A DNA stretch of 64,000 nt, taken from an uncultured bacterium (GTDB lineage: Bacteria; Patescibacteriota; Microgenomatia; UBA1400; PJMF01). Below the pieces are notes generated by a model. The model was not told the DNA's origin. It saw only the letters and a list, made by a program, of their open reading frames with translations, and made no database searches. This document shows positions 2,188-51,037 of the stretch, piece after piece; the first letter of the stretch is position 1, and every line of letters starts with the position of its first letter. The DNA is taken from NCBI GenBank assembly GCA_903842795.1, contig CAIMNJ010000011.1, forward strand, positions 3,166-67,165. The letters run 5' to 3'. The translations under genes were made by a program, and so were the position numbers.

Positions 2188-3534
2188 CCACCAATTGCTT
2201 TGGCGACAAAGAATTTTGCCTGCATCTTCTTCGTTTAGCATCATTTGTTTAATTGCTTCCTCCAAAAAAATTGTATTTTGCGAGCCTTTAACTAAAATTA
2301 GGTCATTGGCTTTTAGTAGATTGGCAATTTTTTCTCCAGCAATTTTTGAATTTTCAAAAAATATGGTTTGATTTTTATTATTTACCCTCATGATGGGTAG
2401 AGCATACTTTTTCATTTCTTGTCCAACTAGGAAAATTTGATCAAAGCTTTTTGAAGCTAATAGCGCTATTTCTTCATGCATTGCTTGAGTTTCCTCTCCA
2501 AGTTCCCTCATGTCTCCAAGTAAAGCTAATTTTCTGCCCTGGTTATTTACTTTATTCATTAATTCAATCATGTCCTTCATGGAAGAGGCGTTATACGAGC
2601 TATCTATAATAGTTGAGTTATTTTTTCCTTTGATTGCTGAAGCTCTCCCAAGAGGAATGGAGAAGTTATTCTCTAGGGAATTTTTTATTTCTTCTGTACT
2701 AAGTCCTGCTTTTATTCCAATTAAAATAGCCGGTGCCAGGCTGTAAGCGTAATGTTTTGGTAATAAAAAATTATTAATTTTGATTGTTAATTTTTGATTT
2801 TTGATTTTTAGCTTGCCATAGTGGCTTTGAATTTGAAAATTAAAAGTGGTGTTAATTATTTTGTCCAGAATCTGTGGTTGATGCTCAATTATTTGCAAAT
2901 CACAAAAGCTATCGCTTCCAAAAGAATAGCTTTCTGCTTTTGTATTTTTGCAGCTTTCCTTGACATTCAGATCATCAAAGTTCAAAAAAGCTAAACCATT
3001 TTTTGGCAAAGATAAGATCAACTTGGCTTTTTCTTCAGCAATTTTCTTTATAATTTGTTTTTTTCTTTCTTTTGGTTCTTGCTCAGAAACCAATTGATCA
3101 AAAGCAAAGCTGTGATTTACGTTGGCATTGAGAAAAACTGCCATTTTGGGTTCGATAATGCTAAGCAAAAAATCCATATTCTTAGGTGGATTGGGACTAT
3201 CTATGCCCATTTCTACTAAGTAGTAATCAAACTTTTCAAAATTAGTAAGCAATTTAATTGGAGCCATAAATAAGACTCTTAGCCAATCTAGAACAGAATA
3301 ATTCTTCATTTCTAATCCTAGAATATCCAATGGAATTCCTGACTCAGAATTAGCTTTAAAACTTGCTTTTACCTGATACTTGTTTTTTAGAACGCTGTAT
3401 ATAGCATTGCGGGTGCTGCTTTTGCCGGCACTACCGGTGATTCCAACAATGTTGCAATTCTTATTCTTTTTCAGTTGCAGTTTGGCAAAAAACCTTAAGT
3501 AATAAAGGACAAATAATGCTGCTTTTTGCTTCAT
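2170..3534 (-). CDS. murF: UDP-MurNAc-tripeptide--D-Ala-D-Ala ligase
   Basis: Mur ligase P-loop 'GITGSAGKSST'; MurF-type 'DSSYNASSMKDMIELM' (DDSYNANP motif); 454 aa. Confidence 0.85.
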   Translation of the reverse strand: MKQKAALFVLYYLRFFAKLQLKKNKNCNIVGITGSAGKSSTRNAIYSVLKNKYQVKASFKANSESGIPLDILGLEMKNYSVLDWLRVLFMAPIKLLTNFEKFDYYLVEMGIDSPNPPKNMDFLLSIIEPKMAVFLNANVNHSFAFDQLVSEQEPKERKKQIIKKIAEEKAKLILSLPKNGLAFLNFDDLNVKESCKNTKAESYSFGSDSFCDLQIIEHQPQILDKIINTTFNFQIQSHYGKLKIKNQKLTIKINNFLLPKHYAYSLAPAILIGIKAGLSTEEIKNSLENNFSIPLGRASAIKGKNNSTIIDSSYNASSMKDMIELMNKVNNQGRKLALLGDMRELGEETQAMHEEIALLASKSFDQIFLVGQEMKKYALPIMRVNNKNQTIFFENSKIAGEKIANLLKANDLILVKGSQNTIFLEEAIKQMMLNEEDAGKILCRQSNWWLSVKR

Positions 3535-6236: not shown

Positions 6237-6296
6237 AAACTCATTATAGCTTATATAACTGCGACTGTTGATGAAAAAACCTGATAAAATCAAACT

Positions 6297-7070
6297 ATGA
6301 AAGTTATGCAAACAAGTCAAATTTTTGGTTTTCCAATCCTTAGTGTTAGGAAACAGGAATTCTTTGATTCTTTGGATAGCTTTTTTTTAGAAAATAGACG
6401 AGACAAATCTCTTACCCTAAAGATTTTTACACCAAATCCCGAACAATTGGTTGTTGCTACAAATGATAAAATTTTTTCTTCAAATTTGTCCAAAGCAAAT
6501 TATCTTTTACCAGATGGGATCGGTTTGGTTTATGCCTCAAAAATTTTGAGTTTTTTTGGCAAAACTAAAGAAAAAATCAAAGAACGCATTGCTGGGGTAG
6601 AGGTGGTAGAGCATTTGCTTGACTTGATTAAAGAGCAAAAACTAAAAGCCTTAATTATCGGTGGGAGAGATTACAGTAATGCTGAAGATGTAGAATTTTC
6701 CTCCAATCTCTTCTGGACAGAGGGATATCAGGATAAATTTGAAATTTTATCTACTGAAGAAGCTGTTTTGACAGAAAAAATTAATGAGCTGAAACCAGAT
6801 TTGGTTTTTATTGCCTTTGGAGCTCCAGATCAGGAAAACTGGATTATTAATCACGAAAAATTATTAGAAGAAAACAAAGTTAGAATTGCCATGGCAGTTG
6901 GAGGCTCATTTGATTTTATTTTCAATAGAGTCAAGAGAGCTCCAGTTTTTGTTCAAAAACTTGGCTTTGAATGGCTTTGGCGCCTCATAAAACAGCCATG
7001 GAGAAGACACAGACAATTACGCCTACTCAGTTTCATTTGGCTGGTTATTAAGGAAATTTTTAAGCGTTAG
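6297..7070 (+). CDS. WecB/TagA/CpsF-family glycosyltransferase (N-acetylmannosaminyltransferase-like)
   Basis: 'FTPNPEQLV', 'LPDGIGLVYASKIL', 'IAFGAPDQENW' and a C-terminal 'WLWRL' are typical of the TagA/WecG family; 257 aa. Confidence 0.75.
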   Translation: MKVMQTSQIFGFPILSVRKQEFFDSLDSFFLENRRDKSLTLKIFTPNPEQLVVATNDKIFSSNLSKANYLLPDGIGLVYASKILSFFGKTKEKIKERIAGVEVVEHLLDLIKEQKLKALIIGGRDYSNAEDVEFSSNLFWTEGYQDKFEILSTEEAVLTEKINELKPDLVFIAFGAPDQENWIINHEKLLEENKVRIAMAVGGSFDFIFNRVKRAPVFVQKLGFEWLWRLIKQPWRRHRQLRLLSFIWLVIKEIFKR

Positions 7071-13026: not shown

Positions 13027-16000
13027 ATGAATCAAGAAGCCTCCGCAATCGTTGAAGAATTATTACAAAAAGAACGCAGCCTTAGCGCACTAAAGAATGC
13101 TGAACAACAAGCCGGAACAGGTTCTTTTATTTTTTCCGATGAAGCAAATCTGTTTAAAGGAGAACCGTCTGCCGAACTTATGGATGTGGTTGGTAGACTT
13201 AATGCCAGAGGAATAAATGTTGCAATTTTTACTTCAGACAATCCAGATAATTTAGAAACATCAGCCCTAAGAGATCAACTCACCCAAGCTAATGGTTTGG
13301 GTAGTTATTCTGATGGAACGCTGCAAGTCAATACTTTGGCCTGTGTCTGGAACAATAAAACAACCGATGGAAGAAAAGAATTGGATTGTGTTACCGGCGC
13401 TGGTATAGGCAGATATATTGGAGATTCTCAAGTTAATAGTTTAGTTAATCATGTTGTTGATGAGGGTTATTATGTTGACGATTTCAGTGCAGGATTTACT
13501 AATGGTTTGACTGAAATCGATCAAATCTTGGCAGCCAGGGAAGCTCAGGCTACTCAACAAGCAGCTCAACCAACAGCTACTCCTTATGCTGAAACTGACA
13601 CTACTCCAATAGAAATCCAGCCTTCAGAATCTCGTCCAAACTTTATGGAAACTCATGGCAGAGAAGTTTATGGTGGTGTGACAGCAGTAATTTTAATGGC
13701 TTTGGTTGGGGCTGATCAGATGTTTGCCAAACCAAAGCGTCTTTTTGTTAAGGGTATTGAATCAGACAGAAGGTCGGCTTTGAATGAAGCAACTAAGTTG
13801 AATTTAGATTTTGGAAAGGGTCTTTCTCTTTTTGATGCAATTATTTCAGAGTACGGTGAGTCTTATCCTGAAAAAGCAAATCAAGCCAGAGAAGATCGCT
13901 CTGTTTTTTCGGAAAAAGTAGATGAAGTTAAAGCTGCTGCTGAAGAGCTAAAATTAGCAAAAGTTGGTTTTTTCCGTAAAAAAGAAGACATGGAAGACGT
14001 AAGAGTAGCTGCTAAAAAATTGCGCACTAAAGCGATGGAATTATTGCGCTTAATAGGCGATCAAAGCAACAAGGCAGAAGATCTGCAAGAGAGAAAGAAC
14101 TCTGCCCGCACCAATGCTGCTGCCGCCAAAGAGAAGCTGGCTGAAGTTAAAGATGTTTGGTATGTAGAAAAATTCAAAGTTTTTGGAGAGATCTTGCCAC
14201 CAAAAGATAAGGCCATGGTCGGTATTGAATCTTTGGCAAAAGAAGCTTTTGATAATGCCTACTACAATACAGCCCTAGCCCTCAAAGGTAATGATCAGGC
14301 TGTTGAAGTGCTTGGTTTGTTAGATAAGTTTATGTTGGCAGTTGGTGCTTTGACCAGTGGTTATGAAATTGCTGATGGATTATATAGAGATGCTGGTTCG
14401 GACATTGCGAAGTGGCCAAATAAGGCAATTGATCTCAAGCAATTGGCTAATTCTGGAATACAGTTACTGACTACTGCCAAAGCAGGTATATCGATCACTG
14501 AAAAGCTTGATGAGGTGATTAGGTTATCTAAAGCAGCTGAGGTGGAATTTGCAAATGCTAAGGATTTCTCTAGTGCAACTGCTACTATTTTGAAACAGCA
14601 AGATGAAAATGATGCGGCAATTGCCGAAATTGAAGAAAAAGGTTTTGAAGATAAACATATTAAAAAGTTCCGTGACGCTATGGTTGAAGCTCTTAGTAAA
14701 GCTAATGTTTTTGCTTCTCAAGGCAATTGGAAGGAAGCGCATGCTCAACTTGGTGTTTTAAGAGTGAAAACCAATGAATCTCTTATTGAGATGAAGCGCT
14801 TAGAACAATTACAAAAACAAAATATTATTGATTTGGAAAATCTTGCCAAGGAGGTGGAAAAAGACAAAAAACGCTATGCCGGTGAGACCACTAAAGCTTG
14901 GACTGATTTGAGTGAAAATTTTGTGCCAGCTAACTACGATGAAAAGGACAAAATTTGGAAAGAGTTGAGAGAAGGATCTGGGTCTGGTGAAAAAATAGTA
15001 ATTGCCGACCTCAATCCATATTTTGCAGCAATTGCTTTGACTCTCAAAGAACTAACTGATGATAAGTCAGACGAAAACGATATTGCCAGTAAAGCTTCTA
15101 GTAGAAATTCTTTTGAAGAACAAAAGTTTGATGAATCTGCAACTCTAATTCGAAAAATGGAGAAAAGGTTGGCAGAGTCTCGTCAAATGATGGATGCGCT
15201 ATTAGAGCGTCAAAAATTAGCCAACAAATCAAAGTCCGAATATTCTGCAGCAATTGTTAATTCATCTGCCCGTCTGGAAGCAGCTGAGGAATCAATTGAT
15301 ACGAAAGAAGAAAACCGCTTAGTAGATAAAGAGGTTGATGAGCAGATCAAGAATGCCAGAAAATTTATTGATTTGGCAGAAAGAGCCGGCAAAGCTTCTA
15401 TATACGTTGCTGCTTTGGAAGCAGCCAATAGAGCGACAGATTTAGCAATAAGAGCAAGACAAAGCGCTGAAGCACAGATAAAAGCTCTCAAAGAACTTTA
15501 TTCAAAACTAGAAAGTCATAAAAAGAGTAGTAATGCTGCTGCCAACAAGGCTATTCAGGCTGTAATAGATGAATCAGATGAAGTAATTACCTCTGCTACC
15601 ACAAATATTCAGAATGCTTTGCAAAGAAGTTTGGCAGCTTTGGTTACGGCAGAAAGTGCTTTAGCTGCTAAAGAAGACCATGTCTTGTCTAAGGCAATAG
15701 AAGATCTTTTAGGTGATCTTGATCAGGTTGATGAAAAAACAGAAGAGCTTGAGCAGGCTTTCAAATCTGATCGCAATAGCTATCAAGATTTACTTGATGA
15801 TTTAAAGAGAGCTATTGGTGATGCTGATTCAGCTATTAGTAGAGCTAGTTCAAAGTGTAATGACCCTGATGCCGGTTCTGCCGGAGATGGAGCCCTAGGC
15901 TCAGCCAGGTCTTCTAATCCAGACATGGCAAGTTGGGGGGAGTCTAGATCTAGTATTAAATCAAAAATACAAGCTGCTAAGCGTGCTGAAGATTATGCTG

Positions 16001-16173
16001 ACAGCGCTTATAATCAGGCTAGCAGCGCAATTTTAGCTGCTGAGCAAGCAAGACAAAGAGAACTAGAAAGACAAAGAGAGGCGCAGAGAGCTAGGGAGAG
16101 AGCTGCTGAACAAGCGAGAGAAGCTAGCAGAACCGTTAATTCTGTTGGTGGACATGCTAGTAGGAAAATCTAA
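13027..16173 (+). CDS. Large (1048-aa) coiled-coil-rich hypothetical protein
   Basis: An N-terminal ~230-aa globular region and a hydrophobic segment 'GGVTAVILMALVGADQMF'. This is followed by ~800 aa of heptad-like charged helical sequence (E/K/A/L-rich). The C-terminus is 'RQRELERQREAQRARERAAEQAREASR'. Confidence 0.6.
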   Translation: MNQEASAIVEELLQKERSLSALKNAEQQAGTGSFIFSDEANLFKGEPSAELMDVVGRLNARGINVAIFTSDNPDNLETSALRDQLTQANGLGSYSDGTLQVNTLACVWNNKTTDGRKELDCVTGAGIGRYIGDSQVNSLVNHVVDEGYYVDDFSAGFTNGLTEIDQILAAREAQATQQAAQPTATPYAETDTTPIEIQPSESRPNFMETHGREVYGGVTAVILMALVGADQMFAKPKRLFVKGIESDRRSALNEATKLNLDFGKGLSLFDAIISEYGESYPEKANQAREDRSVFSEKVDEVKAAAEELKLAKVGFFRKKEDMEDVRVAAKKLRTKAMELLRLIGDQSNKAEDLQERKNSARTNAAAAKEKLAEVKDVWYVEKFKVFGEILPPKDKAMVGIESLAKEAFDNAYYNTALALKGNDQAVEVLGLLDKFMLAVGALTSGYEIADGLYRDAGSDIAKWPNKAIDLKQLANSGIQLLTTAKAGISITEKLDEVIRLSKAAEVEFANAKDFSSATATILKQQDENDAAIAEIEEKGFEDKHIKKFRDAMVEALSKANVFASQGNWKEAHAQLGVLRVKTNESLIEMKRLEQLQKQNIIDLENLAKEVEKDKKRYAGETTKAWTDLSENFVPANYDEKDKIWKELREGSGSGEKIVIADLNPYFAAIALTLKELTDDKSDENDIASKASSRNSFEEQKFDESATLIRKMEKRLAESRQMMDALLERQKLANKSKSEYSAAIVNSSARLEAAEESIDTKEENRLVDKEVDEQIKNARKFIDLAERAGKASIYVAALEAANRATDLAIRARQSAEAQIKALKELYSKLESHKKSSNAAANKAIQAVIDESDEVITSATTNIQNALQRSLAALVTAESALAAKEDHVLSKAIEDLLGDLDQVDEKTEELEQAFKSDRNSYQDLLDDLKRAIGDADSAISRASSKCNDPDAGSAGDGALGSARSSNPDMASWGESRSSIKSKIQAAKRAEDYADSAYNQASSAILAAEQARQRELERQREAQRARERAAEQAREASRTVNSVGGHASRKI

Positions 16174-16193: not shown

Positions 16194-16225
16194 AAAAAAC
16201 CCGCCTTTTTTGAGGCGGGTTTTTA
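16194..16225. terminator. Bidirectional rho-independent terminator
   Basis: 'AAAAAACCCGCCttttttgaGGCGGGTTTTT' lies between convergent genes (the 13027 ORF and rplA). Confidence 0.7.
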
Positions 16226-16248: not shown

Positions 16249-16980
16249 TTATTCCTCTTCAGTTTCTTCAATGAGGACCTTGATTCCTGGACCCATACTT
16301 GGAGAAAGACTTAATTTAACAATTTTGCCTTTCAAAGCTTTGGTTAGAGCTTCAACGTTCTCAACCAAATCAGCGCCACTCATATCGGTTTTGCCGATAA
16401 CTAAGTGCATTAAAGGAGCTTTCTTTTCAGTTTTGAGATTGAATTTACCAGCTTCCAACTCTTTTTTCTTGAGTTCTGGATTTGGGGTCAAAGTACCATT
16501 TTTTGGATTTGGCATTAAGCCTTTTGGACCAAGAACTTTGGCAAATCTGGCCAATTTTGGCATAAACTCTGGATGAGCAACCAAAATTTCATAATCAATT
16601 TTGCCAGCTTCGATGTCGCTTAAAACTTGAGCATCAACGATGGTAACCTTGACGGTTTTACCGGTAGAGTGTGGCAAAGCTAAACTGACGTTGTCACCAA
16701 TTTCTTTGACGACGACGTGAGCTTCAACTGAACCAACAAATTTGCTGTAAGAAAGCTTTTTAACTAGTTCGACAGCCTCTTTGCTAGAGTAAAATTTACT
16801 CTTATCCAATTGAGAGCGTACAGCCTGATATTTTTTACCGCGGACTTTTTTGGCTTTGGCTGGTTTTTTTTCAGCTTTTACCTCTACATCATCAGTTTGC
16901 ACTGATTCTTTTATTTCTGTTTCGACAGTTTTGACCTCAACTTCATTTGCAGTCATGTCGACATTTTTTTTGCTTCCCAT
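16249..16980 (-). CDS. rplA: Ribosomal protein L1 with ~45-aa N-terminal extension
   Basis: 'KKYQAVRSQLDKSKFYSSKEAVELVKKL...FDETVEAHV'-type L1 core, 'GKTVKV' and 'AKVLGPKGLMPNPKNGTLT'. It is preceded by a charged extension 'MGSKKNVDMTANEVEVKTVETEIKE...'. Confidence 0.9.
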   Translation of the reverse strand: MGSKKNVDMTANEVEVKTVETEIKESVQTDDVEVKAEKKPAKAKKVRGKKYQAVRSQLDKSKFYSSKEAVELVKKLSYSKFVGSVEAHVVVKEIGDNVSLALPHSTGKTVKVTIVDAQVLSDIEAGKIDYEILVAHPEFMPKLARFAKVLGPKGLMPNPKNGTLTPNPELKKKELEAGKFNLKTEKKAPLMHLVIGKTDMSGADLVENVEALTKALKGKIVKLSLSPSMGPGIKVLIEETEEE

Positions 16981-17046
16981 AATTTACTTTCTGGTGGTGC
17001 AAGCGGCTAGGGTAAAGTTTGAGCCTCCCACCTTATTATTTTATAT
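16981..17046 (-). promoter_or_regulatory. rplK-rplA intergenic region; candidate L1-binding (23S-mimic) element
   Basis: The mRNA-sense sequence 'GGUGGGAGGCUCAAACUUUACCCUAGCCGCUUGCACC' can form a closed hairpin (GGUG...CACC). L1 is known to autoregulate through an rRNA-mimic site in the L11-L1 mRNA. Only the stem closure was observed; the mimicry was not verified. Confidence 0.25.
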
Positions 17047-17469
17047 TTATACGATGTCAACGCCCATAGATTTGGCAGAACCAATGACACTATTCATAGC
17101 AGAATCAATGTTGTTGGTGTTCATATCTGGCATTTTCTTTTCTGCAATGGCTCTGACTTGATCCATGGTTAATTTGGCCTTATTATCTTTGCCTGCAGTA
17201 GCACTACCAGCTTTCATTCTGAGAGTTTGTTTGATCAAATCTGAGACTGGAGGCAACTTCAAAACAAAAGTGAAGGAATTGTTCTCAAAAATAGTAATTT
17301 CTGCTGGGATGATTTGACCTTTTTGGTCAGCTGTAGCAGCATTATATTGTTTAAGAAAATCCATCATGTTGATACCAGCTTGACCCAAAATTGGACCGAC
17401 TGGAGGGGCTGGAGTAGCAGTACCAGCTGGAAGATTTAATTTCAAAATTGACTTAACTTTTTTAGCCAT
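17047..17469 (-). CDS. rplK: Ribosomal protein L11
   Basis: 'KLNLPAGTATPAPPVGPILGQAGINMMDF' carries the canonical L11 motif PAPPVGPxLG. Confidence 0.95.
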   Translation of the reverse strand: MAKKVKSILKLNLPAGTATPAPPVGPILGQAGINMMDFLKQYNAATADQKGQIIPAEITIFENNSFTFVLKLPPVSDLIKQTLRMKAGSATAGKDNKAKLTMDQVRAIAEKKMPDMNTNNIDSAMNSVIGSAKSMGVDIV

Positions 17470-17564
17470 ATTATTTTCTTTCGATTGTTATTTTTTTATT
17501 TAACCATTTTTTGTGGAGAAGCTCGGCATCCCTAATGTCGACCACAAGTGGTTTGTGTCTATTT

Positions 17565-18185
17565 TTATACTTTTTTGACTTGCAAGAAGTCTAATTCCAC
17601 TGGAGTTTCTCTTCCAAAAATATTGAGAAGTACAGTGACTTTACCTTTTTCTTCATCAATTTTATCGACTGTTCCCAAGAAATCATTAAATGGACCGTCA
17701 ACAACTTTGACAGCTTCACCATCAACGAAATCGGCTTTGTAAGAAGCTTCACCAGATTGCTCGGTGTATTTCATGATAGCTTCAACCTCACTTTTTGGTA
17801 GTGGAGTGGGTTTGCTGCTCATACCGACAAAACCAGTAACGCCATCAGTGGTACGAATTGCCAACCAGGCGTCATCGGTCATTTCCAATTTGACCAACAT
17901 GTAACCTGGGAAAATTTTCTCACTAACGGTTTTTCTTTGACCTCTGCGAATTTGAATTTTGTCTTGAGTTGGAATCAAAACTTGAATTATTTTGTCAGTT
18001 AAATGGAGGGTTTGAGCACGTTGGCGCAAAGCCTCAGCAATTTTCTTTTCATGACCAGAATAAACGTGAACAACATACCAACGAGCTTTTTTGTTGTCGA
18101 CATCAGAAATGTTAACCAAGTTGGGAGAAGAGACTCTCACTTCTTGAACTTCTGGGATTTCTGGCACTTGCATTTGATCGGTCAT
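17565..18185 (-). CDS. nusG: Transcription termination/antitermination factor NusG
   Basis: NGN domain 'WYVVHVYSGHEKKIAEAL' and a KOW domain 'GEAVKVVDGPFNDFLGTVDKIDEEKGKVTVLLNIFGRETPVELDF'. Confidence 0.9.
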   Translation of the reverse strand: MTDQMQVPEIPEVQEVRVSSPNLVNISDVDNKKARWYVVHVYSGHEKKIAEALRQRAQTLHLTDKIIQVLIPTQDKIQIRRGQRKTVSEKIFPGYMLVKLEMTDDAWLAIRTTDGVTGFVGMSSKPTPLPKSEVEAIMKYTEQSGEASYKADFVDGEAVKVVDGPFNDFLGTVDKIDEEKGKVTVLLNIFGRETPVELDFLQVKKV

Positions 18186-18224
18186 AATTCCTTTTTTTGG
18201 TGATTCCTTTTACAAAGGAGAATA

Positions 18225-18407
18225 TTATATCAGAATTCCCATGATTTTTTGTAGGAGAAAATCAATGCCTCCAAGATAAGCGGAGAGTAGGGCTGCTACC
18301 AAGACAACTAGCAAGGTCATGTTTTGAGTATTTTTCTTGCTTGGCCAAGTAGTTTGCTTTAGTTCAGTTGTGACTTCTCTAAAGTAGTTTCTGATTTTTG
18401 CTAACAT
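18225..18407 (-). CDS. secE: Preprotein translocase subunit SecE
   Basis: 60 aa with a single C-terminal TM segment; 'REVTTELKQTTWPSKK'; sits directly upstream of nusG. Confidence 0.75.
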   Translation of the reverse strand: MLAKIRNYFREVTTELKQTTWPSKKNTQNMTLLVVLVAALLSAYLGGIDFLLQKIMGILI

Positions 18408-18471: not shown

Positions 18472-20439
18472 TTATAACTTTAGTGGTTTGTCTTCAGGAA
18501 TTTTGACTTCTTCTGTTGGTTTTTCCTCGTGACCATTTTGATCGTTATTGCGACCATCATAAGGTACACTCCATGGATCTTTTTTAGCTTTGGCGATGGA
18601 AGAAATGATCAAAGCGATAGCAATGAGTAAGATTAATCCAGCAATTGCTAGCCATTGCCATGAGAAGTTGGCCAACATTTGACCTAAGCTAGTTTGAAAT
18701 GGAGAAGTTTTTTTCTCGACTATAGTTGGTGCGCTAGTTGGCTCTGTCTTGGCACTATTGCTGGCAGATTGTTCTTTGTTGGTGGTAGAGCCAGTCACAC
18801 AAGAAATATCTTCTGGATCATCTGCTAAGCGGCATTTTCCTTTATAGCAGCGCATATCTGCTTCACAATCACGGTTGTTGTTGCAACCTTGGTTACAACT
18901 ATTAGTGGTCAGGTCAGTGGCTTCGCTTGGCAAAAGAATAGTTCTGCCAGAACTGTCTGTGTAGGAATTTATATTGCTGCCACCTTTATTTGAAGACAGT
19001 GAGGAAGATGAATTTATAGCAACCTTCTTCACATCACAGGTGGTGCTTTCCAGATTTTTTGGATCTCTGCAACGATTCCAGAAACAAGTTAGGCCAACTC
19101 CACAGTCATTGTTGCTGGCACAATATTCATTGCAACTACGATCGGAAGTTTGAATTCCTGGAGTAGCAAGACAAGCATTGTTACTTGGATTGGTTGCGTT
19201 TCTACATAAACCTTCAGCAGTACAGACTAGTCCAGGAGCACAGCTCTTGCTTTGATCACTGGTTGGACCACACTGATCATTACAATTCTTATATTTGCTC
19301 TGGTCGCCACTGCAATAGGTGATGTAATAGCGCACTGAGGAGATGTGTTGTCCGCCATTATCAGTGCTAAAAAGACGGAAGAAATATTCTTTATTTGGCT
19401 CAAAACTAATTGGACCCTTGGTGCCAGTGGCATGGGTAAATCCTTTAGCTGTCACCATAATCCAGTTGCCATTTGTTTGGTCAATGTTGCCGGCAACTTT
19501 TTTGTGATAAAAATCTCCAAAGTTTGGACTGGTGCTCACATCAATGTAAGTTACATTTGGATATTTTTTGTTGTCCCAGATTACGTATAGAGAATCTCCC
19601 TCAGTTGGTTGATTGAGACATTTATCGTTTGAAGAAAGGTAGAAGAAGCTACTGTTGGCATTAACAACACTATTGTCGGTACACTTCTGACTCAATTCTT
19701 TTAAGGTTTCGTCCTCATACCATTGACATCTTTCTGGTTGTGTTGAGTATTGTCTAGTTTGCCAGCCATTTTTACATTCTCCCCAAGAGGTATATTCGTA
19801 ATGACATTGAGAACGGTCAATACCATTGGTGGTTACGTAATATTGGAAATCTAAGACAGTTGGTTTTTGCAAAATATCTTCTGAAGTTTCATGTTCAATA
19901 ACGGTACTGTCTTGGCTGATTTTAATTTTGACACTACCTTCTTTTTTTGGAGTGAATTTTAGTTGAGAGATGGTTCTCATCTGGTTGTGGGTAGAAAAGG
20001 TAACGGCAGGATCTTTGGTGTTTAGAAGCAAAGTGACTGTGTAGCAATCTTTTTCACAAATACTTTCGACTACTTCTTGTTTGCTAATCTCTAATTCTGC
20101 TGGATAAGTTTCAGTAAAACTAATTTTGCTTTTATCTAAGAGACCTTTATCGACAATAATCTCAAAAATCAATTCTATTGCGTCTACTGACTTGTCTTTT
20201 GTGTTTAATTGCAAATTGATTTTTTGTTCTTCATCAACTTTGAGAGTACTCTGATCAAAAGGATAAGTATTGAGCTCTGCTAATCCAGAATCAACCATAG
20301 CAGCTTTTCTAGTGTCTAAGCTTAATTCGGAAGCTGGTTTTTTGAGGAACATGACTGCTAGTAGGGCAATCGACATAACTAGGACAATAAAAAATAAGCC
20401 GAAAACGGCCAGACGATTGCTTTTTTTAGTTTGCAGCAT
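18472..20439 (-). CDS. Cys-rich modular cell-surface protein (signal-anchor, FN3-like region, three 6-Cys modules, C-terminal TM)
   Basis: N-terminal TM 'LAVFGLFFIVLVMSIALLAVMFL'. Three tandem modules with spacing near C-x3-C-x5-C-x5-C-x4-C-x10-C: 'NCNDQCGPTSDQSKSCAPGLVCTAEGLCRN...AC', 'SCNEYCASNNDCGVGLTCFWNRCRD...TC' and 'SCNQGCNNNRDCEADMRCYKGKCRL...SC'. C-terminal TM 'WLAIAGLILLIAIALIISSIA' followed by a charged tail. Confidence 0.6.
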   Translation of the reverse strand: MLQTKKSNRLAVFGLFFIVLVMSIALLAVMFLKKPASELSLDTRKAAMVDSGLAELNTYPFDQSTLKVDEEQKINLQLNTKDKSVDAIELIFEIIVDKGLLDKSKISFTETYPAELEISKQEVVESICEKDCYTVTLLLNTKDPAVTFSTHNQMRTISQLKFTPKKEGSVKIKISQDSTVIEHETSEDILQKPTVLDFQYYVTTNGIDRSQCHYEYTSWGECKNGWQTRQYSTQPERCQWYEDETLKELSQKCTDNSVVNANSSFFYLSSNDKCLNQPTEGDSLYVIWDNKKYPNVTYIDVSTSPNFGDFYHKKVAGNIDQTNGNWIMVTAKGFTHATGTKGPISFEPNKEYFFRLFSTDNGGQHISSVRYYITYCSGDQSKYKNCNDQCGPTSDQSKSCAPGLVCTAEGLCRNATNPSNNACLATPGIQTSDRSCNEYCASNNDCGVGLTCFWNRCRDPKNLESTTCDVKKVAINSSSSLSSNKGGSNINSYTDSSGRTILLPSEATDLTTNSCNQGCNNNRDCEADMRCYKGKCRLADDPEDISCVTGSTTNKEQSASNSAKTEPTSAPTIVEKKTSPFQTSLGQMLANFSWQWLAIAGLILLIAIALIISSIAKAKKDPWSVPYDGRNNDQNGHEEKPTEEVKIPEDKPLKL

Positions 20440-20815
20440 TGGTTTCTTTCTCTTTTAAGTTGTTTAGATTGACTATTTTGTTAAATAAAGAGTAATCTTT
20501 GGCATCAATTTTGCCATCTTGATTAAGATCGGCTTTTAATGATTCGCTGTCACTCTTAAAAAATGCTTCTTTTATCAGTTTAGCATCTTTTTCATCAATT
20601 TTGCCATCTTGATTGAGGTCGGCATTCTTCAACAGGGAGGTGTCTGTCTTTTGGTAAACTCTTGAATCTTGAAATTTATTTCTTTTATATCCAATATGCC
20701 AAAAAGTAATAACAGCCATAATCAGAACTAAGGTCAAACCAAAAAGAATTAAATTAGATTCAATTTCTTCTTTTTTGACTCTAGAAATCTTTTTTGATGA
20801 CATCAGATAAAGCAT
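20426..20815 (-). CDS. Membrane-anchored protein with two dockerin-type (EF-hand-like) calcium-binding repeats
   Basis: TM 'LILFGLTLVLIMAVITFW', then 'ADLNQDGKIDEKDAKLI' and 'ADLNQDGKIDAKDYSLF'. These resemble dockerin type I repeats (DxNxDGKVNxxD). Overlaps the upstream gene by 14 nt. Confidence 0.55.
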   Translation of the reverse strand: MLYLMSSKKISRVKKEEIESNLILFGLTLVLIMAVITFWHIGYKRNKFQDSRVYQKTDTSLLKNADLNQDGKIDEKDAKLIKEAFFKSDSESLKADLNQDGKIDAKDYSLFNKIVNLNNLKEKETNAAN

Positions 20816-20897
20816 AGCTGATTTATGACTATTGGGTCAAGGATTAGTCTTCTTATGCTATACTTTTAGAACCTTATATTTAGAAAGGCCAACTTTT

Positions 20898-21785
20898 ATG
20901 TCAGAGAAATTAGTTCGTAAGGCAATTATCACTGATGCAGGTTTTGCAAGTCGTTATTTGCCAATTACTAAAACTATTCCTAAAGCCATGTTGCCAATGG
21001 GCAATCGCCCAATTATGCAGTTTGTGATCGAAGAATGCGTTGAGGCAGGTATAGAAGAAATTATTATTGTAGCTACCCCAGAGGGTAAGCCAATTTACGA
21101 AGATTACTTTAACAATGGTGTTAATCGAATTCGCAAACAGTTGGCAGCTCAGGGCAAAGAAGATCGTTATGAACCAGTTCAACAGGTTCTAGACTATCCA
21201 AAAATTACAGTAATTACTCAAGACCCTAGTTTGCCATATGGCAATGGTTCTCCAGTTGTTTCTGCCAAAGCTTTTGTGGAGGGGGAGAAGGCATTTTTGG
21301 TTATTTATAGTGATGACGTGGTTTTTGGTAATCCTGGTGATGCCAAAATGATGGTTGATGCCTATGAGGCAGATCCTACGGTAGATGGCATTATTATGTC
21401 TCAAGAGGTAGAACCAGAAGTAGTCAATAAATACGGTATCATCTCTTTTAGAACAGGCAGCAACGAATTGCTGGATAATATTATTGAAAAACCAGAAATT
21501 GGTGAAGCTCCATCAAATTTAGCTTCTTATGGTAGATACCTTTTGACTCCAAAAATTTTTGAACATCTTATTCCAAGTAACTCTGGCAAAGATGGTGAGC
21601 TTTGGACGGTTGATGCTATCACCAAAATAGCTAACTTGGGTAGAGTATTGGTAGAAAAAACCAAGGGTCAATGGATGACCACTGGTGATCCAGAAAATTA
21701 CTTCAAAGCTCATCTGAAATTTGTAATCGAAAACGAAAAATATGGCAACAAAATAAAAAATTGGGTGGAGGAACTTTCTAAATAA
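20898..21785 (+). CDS. galU: UTP--glucose-1-phosphate uridylyltransferase-like sugar nucleotidyltransferase
   Basis: 'KAIITDAGFASRYLPITKTIPKAMLPMGNRPIMQFVIEE' matches the GalU '[25 protein letters not shown]...PLIQYVVEE' motif. Start is taken at MSEKLV (20898). Confidence 0.75.
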   Translation: MSEKLVRKAIITDAGFASRYLPITKTIPKAMLPMGNRPIMQFVIEECVEAGIEEIIIVATPEGKPIYEDYFNNGVNRIRKQLAAQGKEDRYEPVQQVLDYPKITVITQDPSLPYGNGSPVVSAKAFVEGEKAFLVIYSDDVVFGNPGDAKMMVDAYEADPTVDGIIMSQEVEPEVVNKYGIISFRTGSNELLDNIIEKPEIGEAPSNLASYGRYLLTPKIFEHLIPSNSGKDGELWTVDAITKIANLGRVLVEKTKGQWMTTGDPENYFKAHLKFVIENEKYGNKIKNWVEELSK

Positions 21786-22203: not shown

Positions 22204-22276
22204 GCCTTTGTAGCTCAGTCGGTAGAGCGCAGTCTTGGTAAGACTGAGGTCTCGGGTCCGATCCCCGACAAAGGCT
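22204..22276 (+). tRNA. tRNA-Thr (anticodon GGU)
   Basis: Cloverleaf by eye: acceptor GCCTTTG/CAAAGGC, D-arm GCTC-AGTCGGTA-GAGC, anticodon stem CAGTC/GACTG with loop TTGGTAA, T-arm TCGGG-TCCGATC-CCCGA. CCA is not encoded. Confidence 0.85.
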
Positions 22277-22313
22277 CACTTGCAAAGGCGCGCTGCGCGC
22301 GCCATCTGCAAAA

Positions 22314-22395
22314 GCCAAGGTACTCAAGCGGTCAACGAGGGCAGTCTGTAAAACTGCTGGCCTAGCCTACGTAGGTTCGAATCCTTCCCTTGGCA
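22314..22395 (+). tRNA. tRNA-Tyr (anticodon GUA), class II with long variable arm
   Basis: Acceptor GCCAAGG/CCTTGGC, anticodon stem GCAGT/ACTGC with loop CTGTAAA, long variable arm, T-loop TTCGAAT. Confidence 0.8.
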
Positions 22396-22424
22396 CAGAT
22401 CTCTAGCTTACAAAGGGAGAATTT

Positions 22425-22498
22425 GCCCCCCTAGCTCAATTGGTTAGAGCACCTGTTTTGTAAACAGGAGGTTCCGGGTTCGATTCCCGGGGGTGGCT
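22425..22498 (+). tRNA. tRNA-Thr (anticodon UGU)
   Basis: D-arm GCTC-AATTGGTTA-GAGC, anticodon stem CCTGT/ACAGG with loop TTTGTAA, T-arm CCGGG-TTCGATT-CCCGG. The acceptor stem has one C:U mismatch. Confidence 0.8.
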
Positions 22499-22548
22499 CA
22501 AGAGATGACTCTTAAAATATAAAAAAGTTGTGATAAAATATCAAATCT

Positions 22549-22752
22549 ATGGCAAGCAAGAAAAAAGGTCCAAGACAATCAATCGGTTTACAATGTAGTG
22601 TTTGTAATGCTTTCGGTTACGTAAGCGAATACAACAAAAACAATGAGATTCTCAAGAAACAAACCTCAGGTGAGGGTAGTTTTCCTCTGAACAAATACTG
22701 TAGCGTTTGTCGCAAGCATACTGCTCACAAATTGATGAAAAAATTAAAATAA
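22549..22752 (+). CDS. rpmG: Ribosomal protein L33 (zinc-ribbon type)
   Basis: 67 aa with 'CSVCN...KYCSVCRKHTAHKLMKK', a CxxC...CxxC ribbon matching the Bacillus-type L33 'KYCSxCxxHTxH'. Confidence 0.9.
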   Translation: MASKKKGPRQSIGLQCSVCNAFGYVSEYNKNNEILKKQTSGEGSFPLNKYCSVCRKHTAHKLMKKLK

Positions 22753-22787: not shown

Positions 22788-24260
22788 TTAGTTTAGTTTT
22801 ACTATTTTCAGAATATTTTCCGCTCCGTGATAGAAGTCATGATCAAGCTGTCTACTGTTTTTCATGGCTTGTCCAATCCAGGATCGCTGTTCATTTGCTT
22901 TTAATTTAGGTACAGGCCTGGTCCCGCCAGCTGGAATTGCGCTTTCGGAAGTATGCTCATTGGTCTGAGCGAGTTCAGTTAATTGTTTAGCAATATTGTT
23001 TGTTTGAGCTTGTATTGCTGTGCCATTTTTTTCAAAAACTGCACGTACGTTATATTCCCACTCACCCCATTCCTTGAGAGTGAGTAGAGCAGCTCCAGAA
23101 GCGACTGCGTCGTAGGCCATGTCTCCAGAAGGCTTGCTGATAAAAACATCGGCCCAAGAAAAGCCTTTTTGAATCAATAATTCATTAGCATCAACAATTT
23201 GTGGATGATAGATAATTCTAAAGCGATGCTTATTTTCTTCGTTTTTACTGGTTTTGATCTTGTTATTAATGCCAAAATTGGCAGGGTCATTTGGGCTAAT
23301 GATTTGATAAGCAAGGTCATTAGCTTGAGCAATTTCAATGGCCATATTTTTATGATCTTCATGGGTGCCGGCATAAAAAACCAATTGGGTCTCGACTAAA
23401 TCAGTTTTTTGTCCCAAGGCTTGTTGCTTTAGTATTGGCAACATTTGCTCCAAAATGCTTTTTATTTCTGGTTTATTAGTGCCAAGGCCACCGGTAGTTA
23501 AGCAAATTCTAAGTGGTCTTTCGTCTGTCCAAATTGTTTTTTCTTTGTGGCAATCGACTATTCTTGGGTCAATTGGTGGGCCAGTGACAATGACTTTGTC
23601 TTTTATTTGGTCCTTTGGTATTTTTTTGCCAATTTGTTTGGCAACTTCAAAAAATGATTCTTTGGTGGCTTCATCAAAGACCAAAAATTTCATATTTGGC
23701 AAATGTGCATTTTGCAAATAATCGCTACGCACGTGTGGATCTGTGATCATTTGCACAACTTTTTTACCCTCTGCAGCTAGAATATTGCCCGTCACAATGT
23801 GAAAGGAAAGAATGGTTTTTTTGATTCCAGAACCAAGATAAAGAGTGGGAGGAGTGACATTATCTAAAATTGGCATTTTGGAACGGCCGAATTTATCGAC
23901 GATATCTTTTAACATTTTTAAAATTGGCCAGCGAGCAATAGTTCTGCCAATTAAATCTGTTATTTGTACGCTTTTAAAAGCGGCGTTGCTGACGTAATTA
24001 GTGCTATCTACAAGCCAAGCTTTTTTAGGATCAATGCTATTTCCCCAGGCTTGTATTGCTATGCCGAGAGCCATGGAGTAGTGAGCGCGTGAAAGCACAA
24101 TGTCGGTACTATTGTCTTTTTCTTTTTGATGATGAAGACCCTTGAGGTCTTCTCGAAAGGAAGCGGAAACAGTGATAATGGGAATTTTGGTTTGTTCGAG
24201 GAGTTTTTTGTCTGCTTGGTAAATCTTTTTTAATTCTTTGGCGATTTCATTATCTTGCAT
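22788..24260 (-). CDS. GT-B glycosyltransferase, family-28-like (MGDG synthase/UgtP/MurG-like C-terminal domain)
   Basis: 'WADVFISKPSGDMAYDAVASGAALLTL' resembles the GT28 C-terminal donor-binding motif. The ORF-track start at 24401 would read through tRNA-Trp, so the start is moved to MQDNEIAK at 24260. Confidence 0.6.
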   Translation of the reverse strand: MQDNEIAKELKKIYQADKKLLEQTKIPIITVSASFREDLKGLHHQKEKDNSTDIVLSRAHYSMALGIAIQAWGNSIDPKKAWLVDSTNYVSNAAFKSVQITDLIGRTIARWPILKMLKDIVDKFGRSKMPILDNVTPPTLYLGSGIKKTILSFHIVTGNILAAEGKKVVQMITDPHVRSDYLQNAHLPNMKFLVFDEATKESFFEVAKQIGKKIPKDQIKDKVIVTGPPIDPRIVDCHKEKTIWTDERPLRICLTTGGLGTNKPEIKSILEQMLPILKQQALGQKTDLVETQLVFYAGTHEDHKNMAIEIAQANDLAYQIISPNDPANFGINNKIKTSKNEENKHRFRIIYHPQIVDANELLIQKGFSWADVFISKPSGDMAYDAVASGAALLTLKEWGEWEYNVRAVFEKNGTAIQAQTNNIAKQLTELAQTNEHTSESAIPAGGTRPVPKLKANEQRSWIGQAMKNSRQLDHDFYHGAENILKIVKLN

Positions 24261-24365
24261 GCTTTTTAGTGTAGCAGTTTTTTGGTGGTGGAGGAAATGA
24301 TGATGCGTTAGCTCTGGCTTTATTGAGCAATGATTATTATAATTGGGCTCTAAGAAATTTAACAA

Positions 24366-24436
24366 AGGGCGGTATTTCAATGGCAGAATAGGGGTCTCCA
24401 AAACCTTTGATGAGGGTTCGATTCCTTCCCGCCCTG
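24366..24436 (+). tRNA. tRNA-Trp (anticodon CCA)
   Basis: Acceptor AGGGCGG/CCGCCCT, anticodon stem GGGGT/ACCTT (two G:U pairs) with loop CTCCAAA, T-arm GAGGG-TTCGATT-CCTTC. Confidence 0.75.
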
Positions 24437-24462
24437 CAAAAAAATATTCAAATTGTAAAACG

Positions 24463-50976: not shown

Positions 50977-51037
50977 CTTGCTACCAAAAAATATATTAGC
51001 TAGGCAAGAACTGCCCAAAACAGAAGGATTTCCGGTC

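Follow-up and report, generated by a model that had tools for sequence, protein, structure and literature searches.

Gene pair and genomic neighborhood

The DNA analysed here, a 64-kb stretch that we call the window, comes from a Patescibacterium with a tiny genome, whose nearest relatives carry the labels Pacebacteria or Microgenomates. Two overlapping open reading frames lie on its minus strand and encode proteins of 655 and 129 aa, the larger one a Cys-rich membrane anchor and the smaller one a mini membrane-dockerin. A preliminary description of the sequence had called both frames, and their coordinates and 14-nt overlap bear this out; the 129-aa gene, which it had placed downstream, is in fact upstream (5') of the 655-aa gene. 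The locus consists of the following features:

16249-18407, minus strand: secE, nusG, rplK and rplA, directly downstream of the anchor gene (ORFs; Pfam labels of orthologous loci)
18472-20439, minus strand: gene for the 655-aa Cys-rich membrane anchor, predicted to bear a cohesin (ORF; 43 homologues; alignment A1; AlphaFold model)
20426-20439, minus strand: 14-nt overlap of the dockerin-gene stop with the anchor-gene ATG (ORF coordinates)
20426-20815, minus strand: gene for the 129-aa mini membrane-dockerin (ORF; Pfam Dockerin_1; 22 homologue clusters; dN/dS)
20832-21785, plus strand: divergent NTP_transferase (sugar-nucleotidyl transferase) gene, whose conserved position marks the left edge of the locus (Pfam E 7.5e-30; synteny)

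The order NTP-transferase, dockerin gene, cohesin anchor and secE-nusG-rplK-rplA recurs across Patescibacteria, and an identical 14-nt overlap is found in loci L005, L006, L007 and L008. This overlap suggests that the dockerin and anchor genes are translationally coupled. The pair may also be co-transcribed with secE-nusG. A terminator scan revealed nothing convincing before 16195-16224, and promoter and terminator scans gave counts near or modestly above those of shuffled sequences, with no strong site between the two genes.

The small protein is a type I dockerin with a predicted membrane anchor

The 129-aa protein had been proposed to cross the membrane once and to carry two calcium-binding repeats of dockerin type I. 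Hydropathy reveals one helix (residues ~22-43), in agreement with the first proposal, and the second is upheld by the profile match described below.

20687-20752, minus strand: single TM helix, residues 22-43 (hydropathy; alignment A3)
20462-20626, minus strand: dockerin module, residues 64-118, with two F-hand repeats, each a calcium loop and a predicted helix (Pfam Dockerin_1)
20585-20620, minus strand: calcium loop 1, DLNQDGKIDEKD, residues 66-77
20495-20530, minus strand: calcium loop 2, DLNQDGKIDAKD, residues 96-107

The helix is preceded by a basic cytoplasmic N-terminus and has a conserved W-H at its outer end (alignment A3), an arrangement also seen in distant mini-dockerins, and a linker of ~20 residues separates it from the dockerin. 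The true start of the protein may be Met5 (nt 20803), as in most homologues.

Pfam Dockerin_1 (PF00404) is the best match to the module, hitting two stretches with 40.0 bits against a cutoff of 22.9 (E 4.6e-10), and it is present in 22 of 22 homologues. The two F-hand repeats place Asp/Asn ligands at loop positions 1, 3, 5, 9 and 12, as expected of type I dockerin repeats, which are ~22 residues long. In alignment A3 the ligand sets D66-N68-D70-D74-D77 and D96-N98-D100-D104-D107 are invariant or nearly so, with D66, D70, D74, D77, D96, N98, D100, D104 and D107 identical in all 22 homologues. Could the repeats be only generic EF-hand-like sequence? EF-hand_5 does pass its cutoff (29.2 vs 25.9), but Dockerin_1 scores higher than every EF-hand model, and EF-hand_1, _6, _7 and _8 fall below their cutoffs. 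With a dN/dS of 0.13-0.21, the gene evolves under purifying selection. At least 8 clusters at 50% identity contain mini membrane-dockerins 126-147 aa long, and no other dockerin motif or profile match occurs within the 64-kb window.

Architecture of the 655-aa anchor

From N- to C-terminus, the anchor comprises a hydrophobic helix, a predicted cohesin fold, a 4-Cys module, an FN3-like domain, three 6-Cys modules and a membrane helix:

20344-20412, minus strand: N-terminal hydrophobic helix, residues 10-32 (hydropathy; modelled helix 9-32)
20299-20319, minus strand: juxtamembrane motif L-D-T-R-K-A-A, family consensus Q-D-x-R-x-x-A (alignment A1)
19828-20283, minus strand: predicted cohesin-fold domain, residues 53-204, including the conserved pair C128-x3-C132
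19675-19827, minus strand: small 4-Cys module, residues 205-255, 'YTSWGECKNGWQTRQY...C' (alignment A1)
19312-19674, minus strand: FN3-like beta-sandwich domain, residues 256-376
19171-19284, minus strand: 6-Cys module 1, residues 386-423 (conserved cysteines, alignment A1)
19036-19134, minus strand: 6-Cys module 2, residues 436-468
18799-18897, minus strand: 6-Cys module 3, residues 515-547 (alignment A1)
18589-18675, minus strand: C-terminal TM helix, residues 589-617 (hydropathy; modelled helix 594-618)
18475-18588, minus strand: cytoplasmic tail, residues 618-655, ending in a conserved K-I-P-E-D-K-P-L-x-L (alignment A1)

The preliminary description had anticipated much of this layout. Its two membrane segments are recovered by hydropathy (residues ~10-32 and ~589-617). 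Its "FN3-like beta region" does hold an FN3-like domain (256-376), but the same region also contains the cohesin-fold domain (53-204) and the 4-Cys module (205-255). Its three 6-Cys modules are present, but not strictly in tandem, as gaps of 12 and 46 residues separate them, and the proposed spacing C-x3-C-x5-C-x5-C-x4-C-x10-C fits modules 2 and 3 but not module 1, which reads C-x3-C-x9-C-x5-C-x5-C-x10-C.

The N-terminal helix, conserved to the same degree as the C-terminal one, may be a signal-anchor or else a long signal peptide. In the juxtamembrane motif, D42, R44 and A47 are invariant (alignment A1), and among the loci the motif is confined to proteins of this gene cluster. At the other end of the protein, P648 and P652 of the cytoplasmic tail are nearly invariant (alignment A1). 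The 4-Cys module, which is duplicated in P0043, looks like a thrombospondin type-1 repeat, a likeness that serves as a lead only, with no family cutoff passed: its best Pfam match is PTN_MK_C (E 0.3, 11.9 bits vs 25.3), and we assign it to neither TSP1 nor PTN-MK.

Across 37 homologues the cysteines of the 6-Cys modules vary hardly or not at all, and thus the modules are not a chance pattern; in module 3, six of six are invariant (alignment A1). We regard the modules as knottin-like and carried on Ser/Thr-rich linkers. No known disulfide-rich family reached its gathering cutoff, whether Dumpy DPY (Dumpy_DPY, 22.8 vs 27) or the carboxypeptidase-A-inhibitor knottin (CarbpepA_inh, 18.4 vs 25) on module 2, DUF7107 on module 3 (17.1 vs 24.6), or Dickkopf_N in a paralogue (12 vs 25). 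Pfam and NCBIfam scans of the whole protein found no cohesin, their sole match being OppC_N, an artefact of a membrane helix, and separate Pfam scans of its domains placed no Cohesin, FN3, TSP1 or Cys-module family above cutoff.

A cohesin fold revealed by structure prediction

The preliminary description had suggested a cohesin-dockerin-like system and proposed scanning for cohesin-like folds, without recognizing that a predicted cohesin fold lies inside the 655-aa protein itself. The domain model (pLDDT 89.5, pTM 0.82) is a beta-sandwich of nine strands, and the solved structures nearest to it are cohesins. Cohesins were the top Foldseek matches (2w1n, cohesin plus FN3, E 3e-7), and all of the 19 best structural matches were cohesins, with a clear gap before other folds. 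Profile searches of PDB sequences, using the orthologue alignment (A2) and a broader alignment (A5) as queries, ranked R. flavefaciens cohesins first, at weak E values (0.2-0.5 and 0.03) that are not significant alone. With E allowed up to 10, Pfam Cohesin (PF00963) still matched neither the full protein nor the domain taken alone.

Paralogous anchors in L004 and L024 have FN3-like and Cys modules in common with the window anchor, and their N-terminal domains pass Pfam Cohesin (~41 bits vs 24.1). BLASTP relates the window anchor to the L004 paralogue at 5e-40. When the window-type domain was compared by hhalign with the two Pfam-positive paralogue cohesins, they aligned in register at E 0.042, too weak to claim sequence homology between these domains. 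The structural model points to a cohesin fold for the N-terminal beta domain of the window anchor. The suggested cohesin-dockerin-like system is therefore supported, as neither of the two outcomes named in advance as fatal to it, generic EF-hand-like repeats and the lack of a cohesin-like partner, was obtained.

Gene pairing is conserved and cargo is variable

Across the window and 46 loci, 20 of 3212 ORFs match a dockerin profile; 20 of 20 lie inside these clusters, and 19 of them directly precede an anchor-family ORF. Conservation of the two-gene arrangement, which the preliminary description had proposed to check, is thus evident, with many Patescibacteria neighborhoods pairing a dockerin-bearing gene with a cohesin anchor. 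In distant relatives the dockerin clients include Peptidase_C1 (papain-like protease) fused to a dockerin and, in one relative, a pectate-lyase-like protein; most clients identified are papain-like proteases or lack a known function. The L004 protease dockerin has two neighboring cohesins. Adaptors that join a cohesin-like domain to a C-terminal dockerin stand directly upstream of the anchor in L023 (343 aa) and L029 (475 aa), and a distant mini-dockerin, P0070, occupies the equivalent position. In the source genome the client has shrunk to a membrane helix plus dockerin, without cargo. We take the identities of the domains, the conserved pairing, the variability of the cargo and the purifying selection on the small gene as shown.

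A candidate non-cellulosomal docking pair on the envelope

We think it probable that the two gene products match each other as a non-cellulosomal cohesin-dockerin pair on the Patescibacterium envelope, formed by a single-cohesin membrane-anchored scaffoldin and a cargo-less dockerin partner. We infer physical binding of dockerin to cohesin, its calcium dependence, the membrane topology and the biological role. In the mechanism that we propose, the 14-nt overlap would couple translation of both genes, and Sec would insert both products. Outside the cell the dockerin would take up calcium and then engage the cohesin to form a heteromeric membrane complex. Dockerin-tagged enzymes or cohesin-plus-dockerin adaptors precede the anchor across the wider family, which suggests a single-cohesin anchoring scaffoldin that keeps proteins with a dockerin tag on the cell surface. 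The mini-dockerin would be a cargo-less client, useful but dispensable, perhaps serving as a tether, cap or place-holder. Because cohesin and dockerin each lie ~20 residues from an N-terminal membrane helix, binding in cis is predicted to be possible. Should cleavage at the conserved motif remove the anchor's N-terminal helix, the cohesin would lie far from the membrane and binding in cis would be less natural.

Alternatively, the anchor cohesin could serve mainly dockerin proteins encoded elsewhere in the genome. The mini-dockerin would then be no structural partner but the decaying remnant of a former enzyme client, or else a protein that fills the socket as competitor or regulator. Enzyme-bearing clients in relatives are consistent with this, as is the pattern of loss: the mini-dockerin gene is missing from 9 of 14 close orthologous loci, has been lost at least 3 times among close orthologues, and persists in L001 as a fresh deletion remnant. 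Among genomes with the anchor, CP011212.1 is an example that keeps the gene, and the 751-kb contig JAHIUB010000002.1 one that lacks it. Moreover, cohesin-domain identity is the same in lineages with and without the gene (0.73 vs 0.73), and a search for cohesin residues that separate the two groups found none. Given this equal conservation, the mini-dockerin cannot be the cohesin's sole reason to exist. However, where the gene is kept, its low dN/dS, invariant calcium ligands and conserved overlap speak against this reading, as do the several clusters of mini membrane-dockerins and the lack of any further dockerin match in the window, and we consider that the cohesin is unlikely to be devoted mainly to clients from elsewhere.

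A second possibility is that the two proteins do not interact as cohesin and dockerin at all: the small one would be an EF-hand-like calcium-binding membrane protein, and the large one an adhesin that uses its N-terminal beta-sandwich to bind a ligand on a host or in a matrix. The superior score of Dockerin_1, the exclusively cohesin nature of the best structural matches, and the occurrence of dockerin genes, among the loci, only beside these anchors, in distant lineages and with differing cargo, make this quite improbable. Least probable is a true cellulosome, a polysaccharide-degrading multi-enzyme complex, which we reject since the anchor has one cohesin-fold domain, Pfam scans found no CBM, the 64-kb window holds no dockerin-bearing glycoside hydrolase and its sole dockerin is on the cargo-less 129-aa protein, and clients in relatives are mostly proteases or of unknown function, even though one of them is pectate-lyase-like and a metaproteome study interpreted the cohesin and dockerin proteins expressed by Ca. 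Shapirobacterales, a Microgenomates relative, as a cellulosome (Bell et al., bioRxiv 10.1101/2021.08.21.457207).

Comparison with known cohesin-dockerin systems

The favored pairing of a membrane-anchored cohesin with a cargo-less dockerin can be set against several known systems. Non-cellulosomal cohesin-dockerin modules occur in Clostridium perfringens glycoside hydrolases (NanJ GH33 cohesin, 2vo8; NagJ GH84C cohesin-FN3, 2w1n, 2o4e), to whose cohesins sequence identity is only 6-13%. There, the modules are on secreted, mutually associating enzymes, whereas here the cohesin is on a membrane-anchored Cys-rich stalk and the dockerin on a cargo-less membrane protein. The anchoring scaffoldins of cellulosomes and their type I pairs (C. 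thermocellum OlpA, OlpC, 3ul4, 4dh2; CipA-Xyn10B, 1ohz) are also close, but anchoring here relies on membrane helices rather than SLH domains or sortase, the protein also carries knottin-like Cys modules, CBM and glycoside hydrolase are missing, and the cohesin is too divergent for PF00963. Stand-alone or non-cellulosomal cohesins (Archaeoglobus fulgidus, 2xdh; R. flavefaciens autonomous cohesin, 4n2o) are set apart by their PDB descriptions, which name no membrane anchor or Cys modules. Adaptor scaffoldins with cohesin plus dockerin (A. cellulolyticus ScaB, 3l8q) resemble the L023 and L029 proteins, whereas the window has no adaptor, only the mini-dockerin; the L004 paralogue has marginal sequence similarity to 3l8q (E 0.004).

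A dockerin-domain envelope protein was essential in the one Patescibacterium examined by transposon sequencing (Wang et al., 2023; PMC10633639); it differs from the window's protein, yet shows that dockerin modules can matter in Patescibacteria. That essential protein, SEML1_0315 of Southlakia, has 927 aa and Ig domains, and its gene neighborhood is another one, so it is not the same system. We searched the literature and came upon no account of the pair in Patescibacteria.

Implications for Patescibacteria

Patescibacteria account for a large fraction of uncultured bacteria, and to our knowledge little has been established about how their surface is assembled. The few that have been cultivated grow attached to host cells (PMC10633639). 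The locus looks like a minimal, non-cellulose form of a docking system best known from cellulosomes. More speculatively, and with real doubt on our part, cohesin-dockerin docking could, in these very small bacteria, have been turned into a general route for surface display and membrane-complex assembly, fixed beside secE, in which a Cys-rich single-cohesin anchor takes interchangeable dockerin-tagged clients (protease, lyase, adaptor or bare membrane helix), all routed by a shared, undescribed N-terminal signal consisting of a membrane helix and then Q-D-x-R-x-x-A. Here, the pair would form an extracellular clasp between two membrane proteins, possibly part of a host-contact apparatus; if true, such a clasp is a use not described for a cohesin-dockerin pair.

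A conserved syntenic module beside secE-nusG, consisting of a cohesin anchor and exchangeable dockerin-tagged clients, proteases included, provides a testable model of envelope display. It would extend cohesin-dockerin biology to anchoring by membrane helices, to a dockerin client without cargo, and to a cohesin that is missed by sequence models and revealed only by structure prediction, and thus present annotation may undercount such systems.

Layout of the gene pair and its neighbours

Two overlapping genes encode a 655-aa Cys-rich membrane protein with a predicted cohesin fold (the anchor) and a 129-aa protein with a membrane helix and a dockerin (the mini-dockerin). They lie among the following genes:

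16249-16980, minus strand, rplA, after rplK
17047-17469, minus strand, rplK, after nusG
17565-18185, minus strand, nusG, after secE
18225-18407, minus strand, secE, 3' of the anchor gene
18472-20439, minus strand, anchor gene, ORF of 655 aa
20426-20815, minus strand, mini-dockerin gene, ORF of 129 aa
20832-21785, plus strand, sugar-nucleotidyl transferase gene (Pfam NTP_transferase), divergent to the pair

The coordinates and 14-nt overlap of the two ORFs match the preliminary description; the small gene, placed there downstream of the large one, instead lies upstream (5'), as both are on the minus strand. On the strand opposite secE, with the pair and the NTP-transferase gene in between, are tRNA-Thr(GGU), tRNA-Tyr, tRNA-Thr(UGU) and then rpmG (L33) at 22204-22752 (+), and beyond them tRNA-Trp at 24366-24437 (+); tRNA genes and rpmG are the usual companions of secE-nusG. 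A 537-aa protein encoded at 22788-24401 (-) has a near-threshold match to DUF6938 (26.4 vs 27), and belongs to the conserved neighbourhood, since counterparts of ~500 aa occur near the locus in L001, L005, L007 and L048 (L numbers denote orthologous or related loci). Between thrS and rplA, 13027-16173 (+) encodes a protein of 1048 aa that combines a TPM domain at its N-terminus (23.9 bits vs 22.1) with a long, Ala/Glu/Lys-rich, apparently coiled-coil body; because thrS directly abuts rplA in related loci, or is separated from it by one small gene, the 1048-aa gene looks like a lineage-specific insertion. Two unusual fusions were also seen: a 929-aa protein (3531-6320, -) whose Mur-ligase domains begin only at residue 481, with no Pfam match to residues 1-480, and an argininosuccinate synthase with a C-terminal MGS-like domain (50978-52672, +).

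A dockerin in the small protein

The mini-dockerin has one membrane helix (~residues 22-43, by hydropathy) and two calcium loops, DLNQDGKIDEKD at residues 66-77 and DLNQDGKIDAKD at 96-107. That these are dockerin repeats, as first proposed from the sequence, is borne out by Pfam, where Dockerin_1 is the top match (40.0 bits vs a curated cutoff of 22.9, E 4.6e-10); EF-hand_5 also passes its cutoff (29.2 vs 25.9), and all EF-hand models score below Dockerin_1. Homologues form 22 clusters, all with PF00404; aligned, they are invariant at the calcium-ligand positions of the two loops, over much of both helices and at a W-H where the membrane helix ends on the outer side. Where present, the gene is under purifying selection (dN/dS 0.13-0.21, with dS at or near saturation), which marks it as a real gene. 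Among 1.8 billion representative proteins searched with a profile, at least 8 clusters at 50% identity share this mini architecture (126-147 aa). The cytoplasmic N-terminus is conserved as MPSKKISKxKKEEIESN (20753-20815, -).

A cohesin fold and Cys modules in the anchor

Searched in full against the Pfam and NCBIfam sequence libraries, the anchor returned only a membrane-helix artefact. With 37 homologues (whole-anchor alignment A1) as input, AlphaFold modelled two beta domains with confidence, residues 55-203 and ~260-375. Foldseek matches in the PDB are almost all cohesins, and the best of them is the double module, cohesin plus FN3, from C. perfringens NagJ (2w1n, E 3.3e-7). Pfam Cohesin does not match the anchor domain, PDB profile searches ranked R. 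flavefaciens cohesins first but weakly (E 0.03-0.5), and hhalign against Pfam-positive relatives was also weak (E 0.042). On the model, then, this is a cohesin-fold domain, but by sequence not a member of PF00963. Two related loci, L004 and L024, contain a second, paralogous anchor within the same cluster; that of L004 has the FN3-like and Cys modules in common with the window anchor (BLASTP 5e-40). The N-terminal domains of both paralogues pass Pfam Cohesin (~41 bits vs 24.1), which puts canonical cohesins at the corresponding place in this family of proteins. Within the cohesin-fold domain of the window anchor, the turn between two strands holds a conserved C-x3-C pair (C128, C132; 20044-20058, -), probably a disulfide, which is missing from distant family members in the broader cohesin-domain alignment (A5).

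Hydropathy places two helices in the anchor, at ~residues 10-32 and 589-617. Among its 26 cysteines are three 6-Cys modules (residues 386-423, 436-468 and 515-547, separated by 12 and 46 residues). The spacing first reported for these is exact in modules 2 and 3, whereas module 1 has x9, x5 instead of x5, x4. They narrowly miss the cutoffs of several small disulfide-rich families: Dumpy_DPY (22.8 vs 27), carboxypeptidase-A-inhibitor (18.4 vs 25) and DUF7107 (17.1 vs 24.6). Residues 205-255 (19675-19827, -) form a conserved small 4-Cys unit, YTSWGECKNGWQTRQY...C, with the pattern C-x-Y-x-Y-T-x-W-x-x-C-x-N-G-W-Q-T-R...C...C. It resembles thrombospondin type-1 or midkine repeats, and no family model matched it (best PTN_MK_C, E 0.3). 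The unit is duplicated in P0043, a distant anchor homologue from L004, and probably also in L023 and L024. The last 10 residues of the anchor, at its cytoplasmic end, are conserved as KIPEDKPLxL (18475-18504, -); together with the conserved N-terminus of the mini-dockerin, they hint at cytoplasmic contacts of some kind.

A conserved locus with variable clients

We collected 48 loci, from look-ups of exact proteins and a single scan of species-representative genomes. One gene order recurs, namely NTP_transferase (opposite strand), dockerin gene, anchor, secE, nusG, rplK, rplA; the records concerned bear the titles Pacebacteria, Microgenomatus, Paceibacterota, Woesebacteria and 'Patescibacteria group'. 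We searched 3212 stop-to-stop ORFs from the window and 46 of the 48 loci with HMMs of the small protein (alignment A3), the cohesin domain (A2) and the whole anchor (A1). The dockerin profile matched 20 ORFs, 19 of them directly upstream of an anchor-family ORF and the last before another dockerin gene of the same cluster; none lay outside these clusters. The 64-kb window has one dockerin, one cohesin-like domain and no more.

Dockerin-bearing proteins encoded upstream of the anchor at related loci
L004, L024: papain-family protease plus dockerin
L026: pectate-lyase-like protein
L024, L031, L040: dockerin on proteins of unknown function
L030: DUF11 protein, weak C-terminal dockerin
L023 (2577-3605), L029 (4908-6332): N-terminal cohesin-like domain and C-terminal dockerin, adaptor type
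L032, L037, L048: small membrane-dockerin proteins like that of the window

The adaptor-scaffoldin layout of L023 and L029 implies two-tier assemblies in some Patescibacteria.

A juxtamembrane motif and the topology of the anchor

Between the N-terminal helix and the cohesin-fold domain, the anchor has an invariant D42-x-R44-x-x-A47. The wider motif is [QL][DE]-x-R-x-x-A (anchor residues 41-47; 20299-20319, -). It follows an N-terminal hydrophobic helix at a distance of 1-10 residues in 49 of the 3212 ORFs, every one within the cohesin/dockerin clusters; besides anchors and dockerin clients, these include a few more of the neighbours. Examples are:

L004, 1623-4211
L024, 4083-4940
L030, 2233-4251
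L032, 4243-4770
L038, 2258-3985

No Pfam or NCBIfam model matched the motif; it may be a signal for sorting or processing that has not been described.

In each protein, ~20 residues separate the dockerin or cohesin from an N-terminal membrane helix. With the first helix of the anchor retained, the two modules would be adjacent at the membrane and could bind in cis. Alternatively, the motif, which the L004 protease-dockerin client also carries, may be a processing site common to these proteins; were the helix cleaved there, the cohesin would stand at the far end of a stalk anchored by its C-terminus, the classical scaffoldin geometry. The first helix is conserved like the second (identity 0.56-0.61 and 0.64-0.69), with only 0.24 in the stalk, and this sequence conservation favours retention.

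Proposed working and loss of the mini-dockerin

The structures nearest to the anchor cohesin fold are non-cellulosomal cohesins of C. perfringens glycoside hydrolases, followed by type I cohesins of cellulosomal anchoring scaffoldins, and with its one socket the window system would work like an anchoring scaffoldin. For a Microgenomates genome, cohesin and dockerin proteins have been described and also detected in a metaproteome, where they were interpreted as a cellulosome (bioRxiv 10.1101/2021.08.21.457207). We rejected a cellulosome for the window, where we see a single cohesin, no CBM and no glycoside hydrolase with a dockerin. The dockerin-domain envelope protein that is essential in Southlakia (PMC10633639) is not the same protein, and its gene has other neighbours. 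Our literature search, incomplete in coverage, found no description of the conserved gene pair, the Cys-module anchor or mini membrane-dockerins, which is absence of evidence only.

The cohesin-dockerin-like system first proposed is supported and sharpened, with the cohesin inside the finding itself. The anchor would act as a single-cohesin, membrane-anchored scaffoldin, and the gene in front of it would supply a dockerin-tagged client, here a cargo-less membrane protein whose translation the conserved 14-nt overlap may couple to that of the anchor. We consider it reasonably probable that the two proteins form a complex, and are surer of the domain identities; we infer binding, its calcium dependence, co-transcription with secE-nusG and any host-contact role.

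The mini-dockerin is dispensable. Its gene is present in 5 of 14 close orthologous loci from species-representative genomes (L009, L010, L014, L017, L021); in the other nine, the anchor directly follows the NTP-transferase gene. In a neighbour-joining tree of anchors the outgroups have dockerin genes, and absences fall in at least three places. The loss in L001 is very recent: compared with near-identical L017 (4616-5011), two internal deletions (~208 and ~52 nt) destroy the gene at L001 ~5895-6000, while its start, its end and the overlap with the anchor start are still intact, and all three assemblies of that contig have these deletions. The mean identity of the cohesin domain is 0.73 both with and without the small gene, and no position of the domain separates the two sets of lineages. 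Given this equal conservation, the cohesin must have some role beyond this one partner, involving either other dockerin proteins encoded elsewhere or another ligand.
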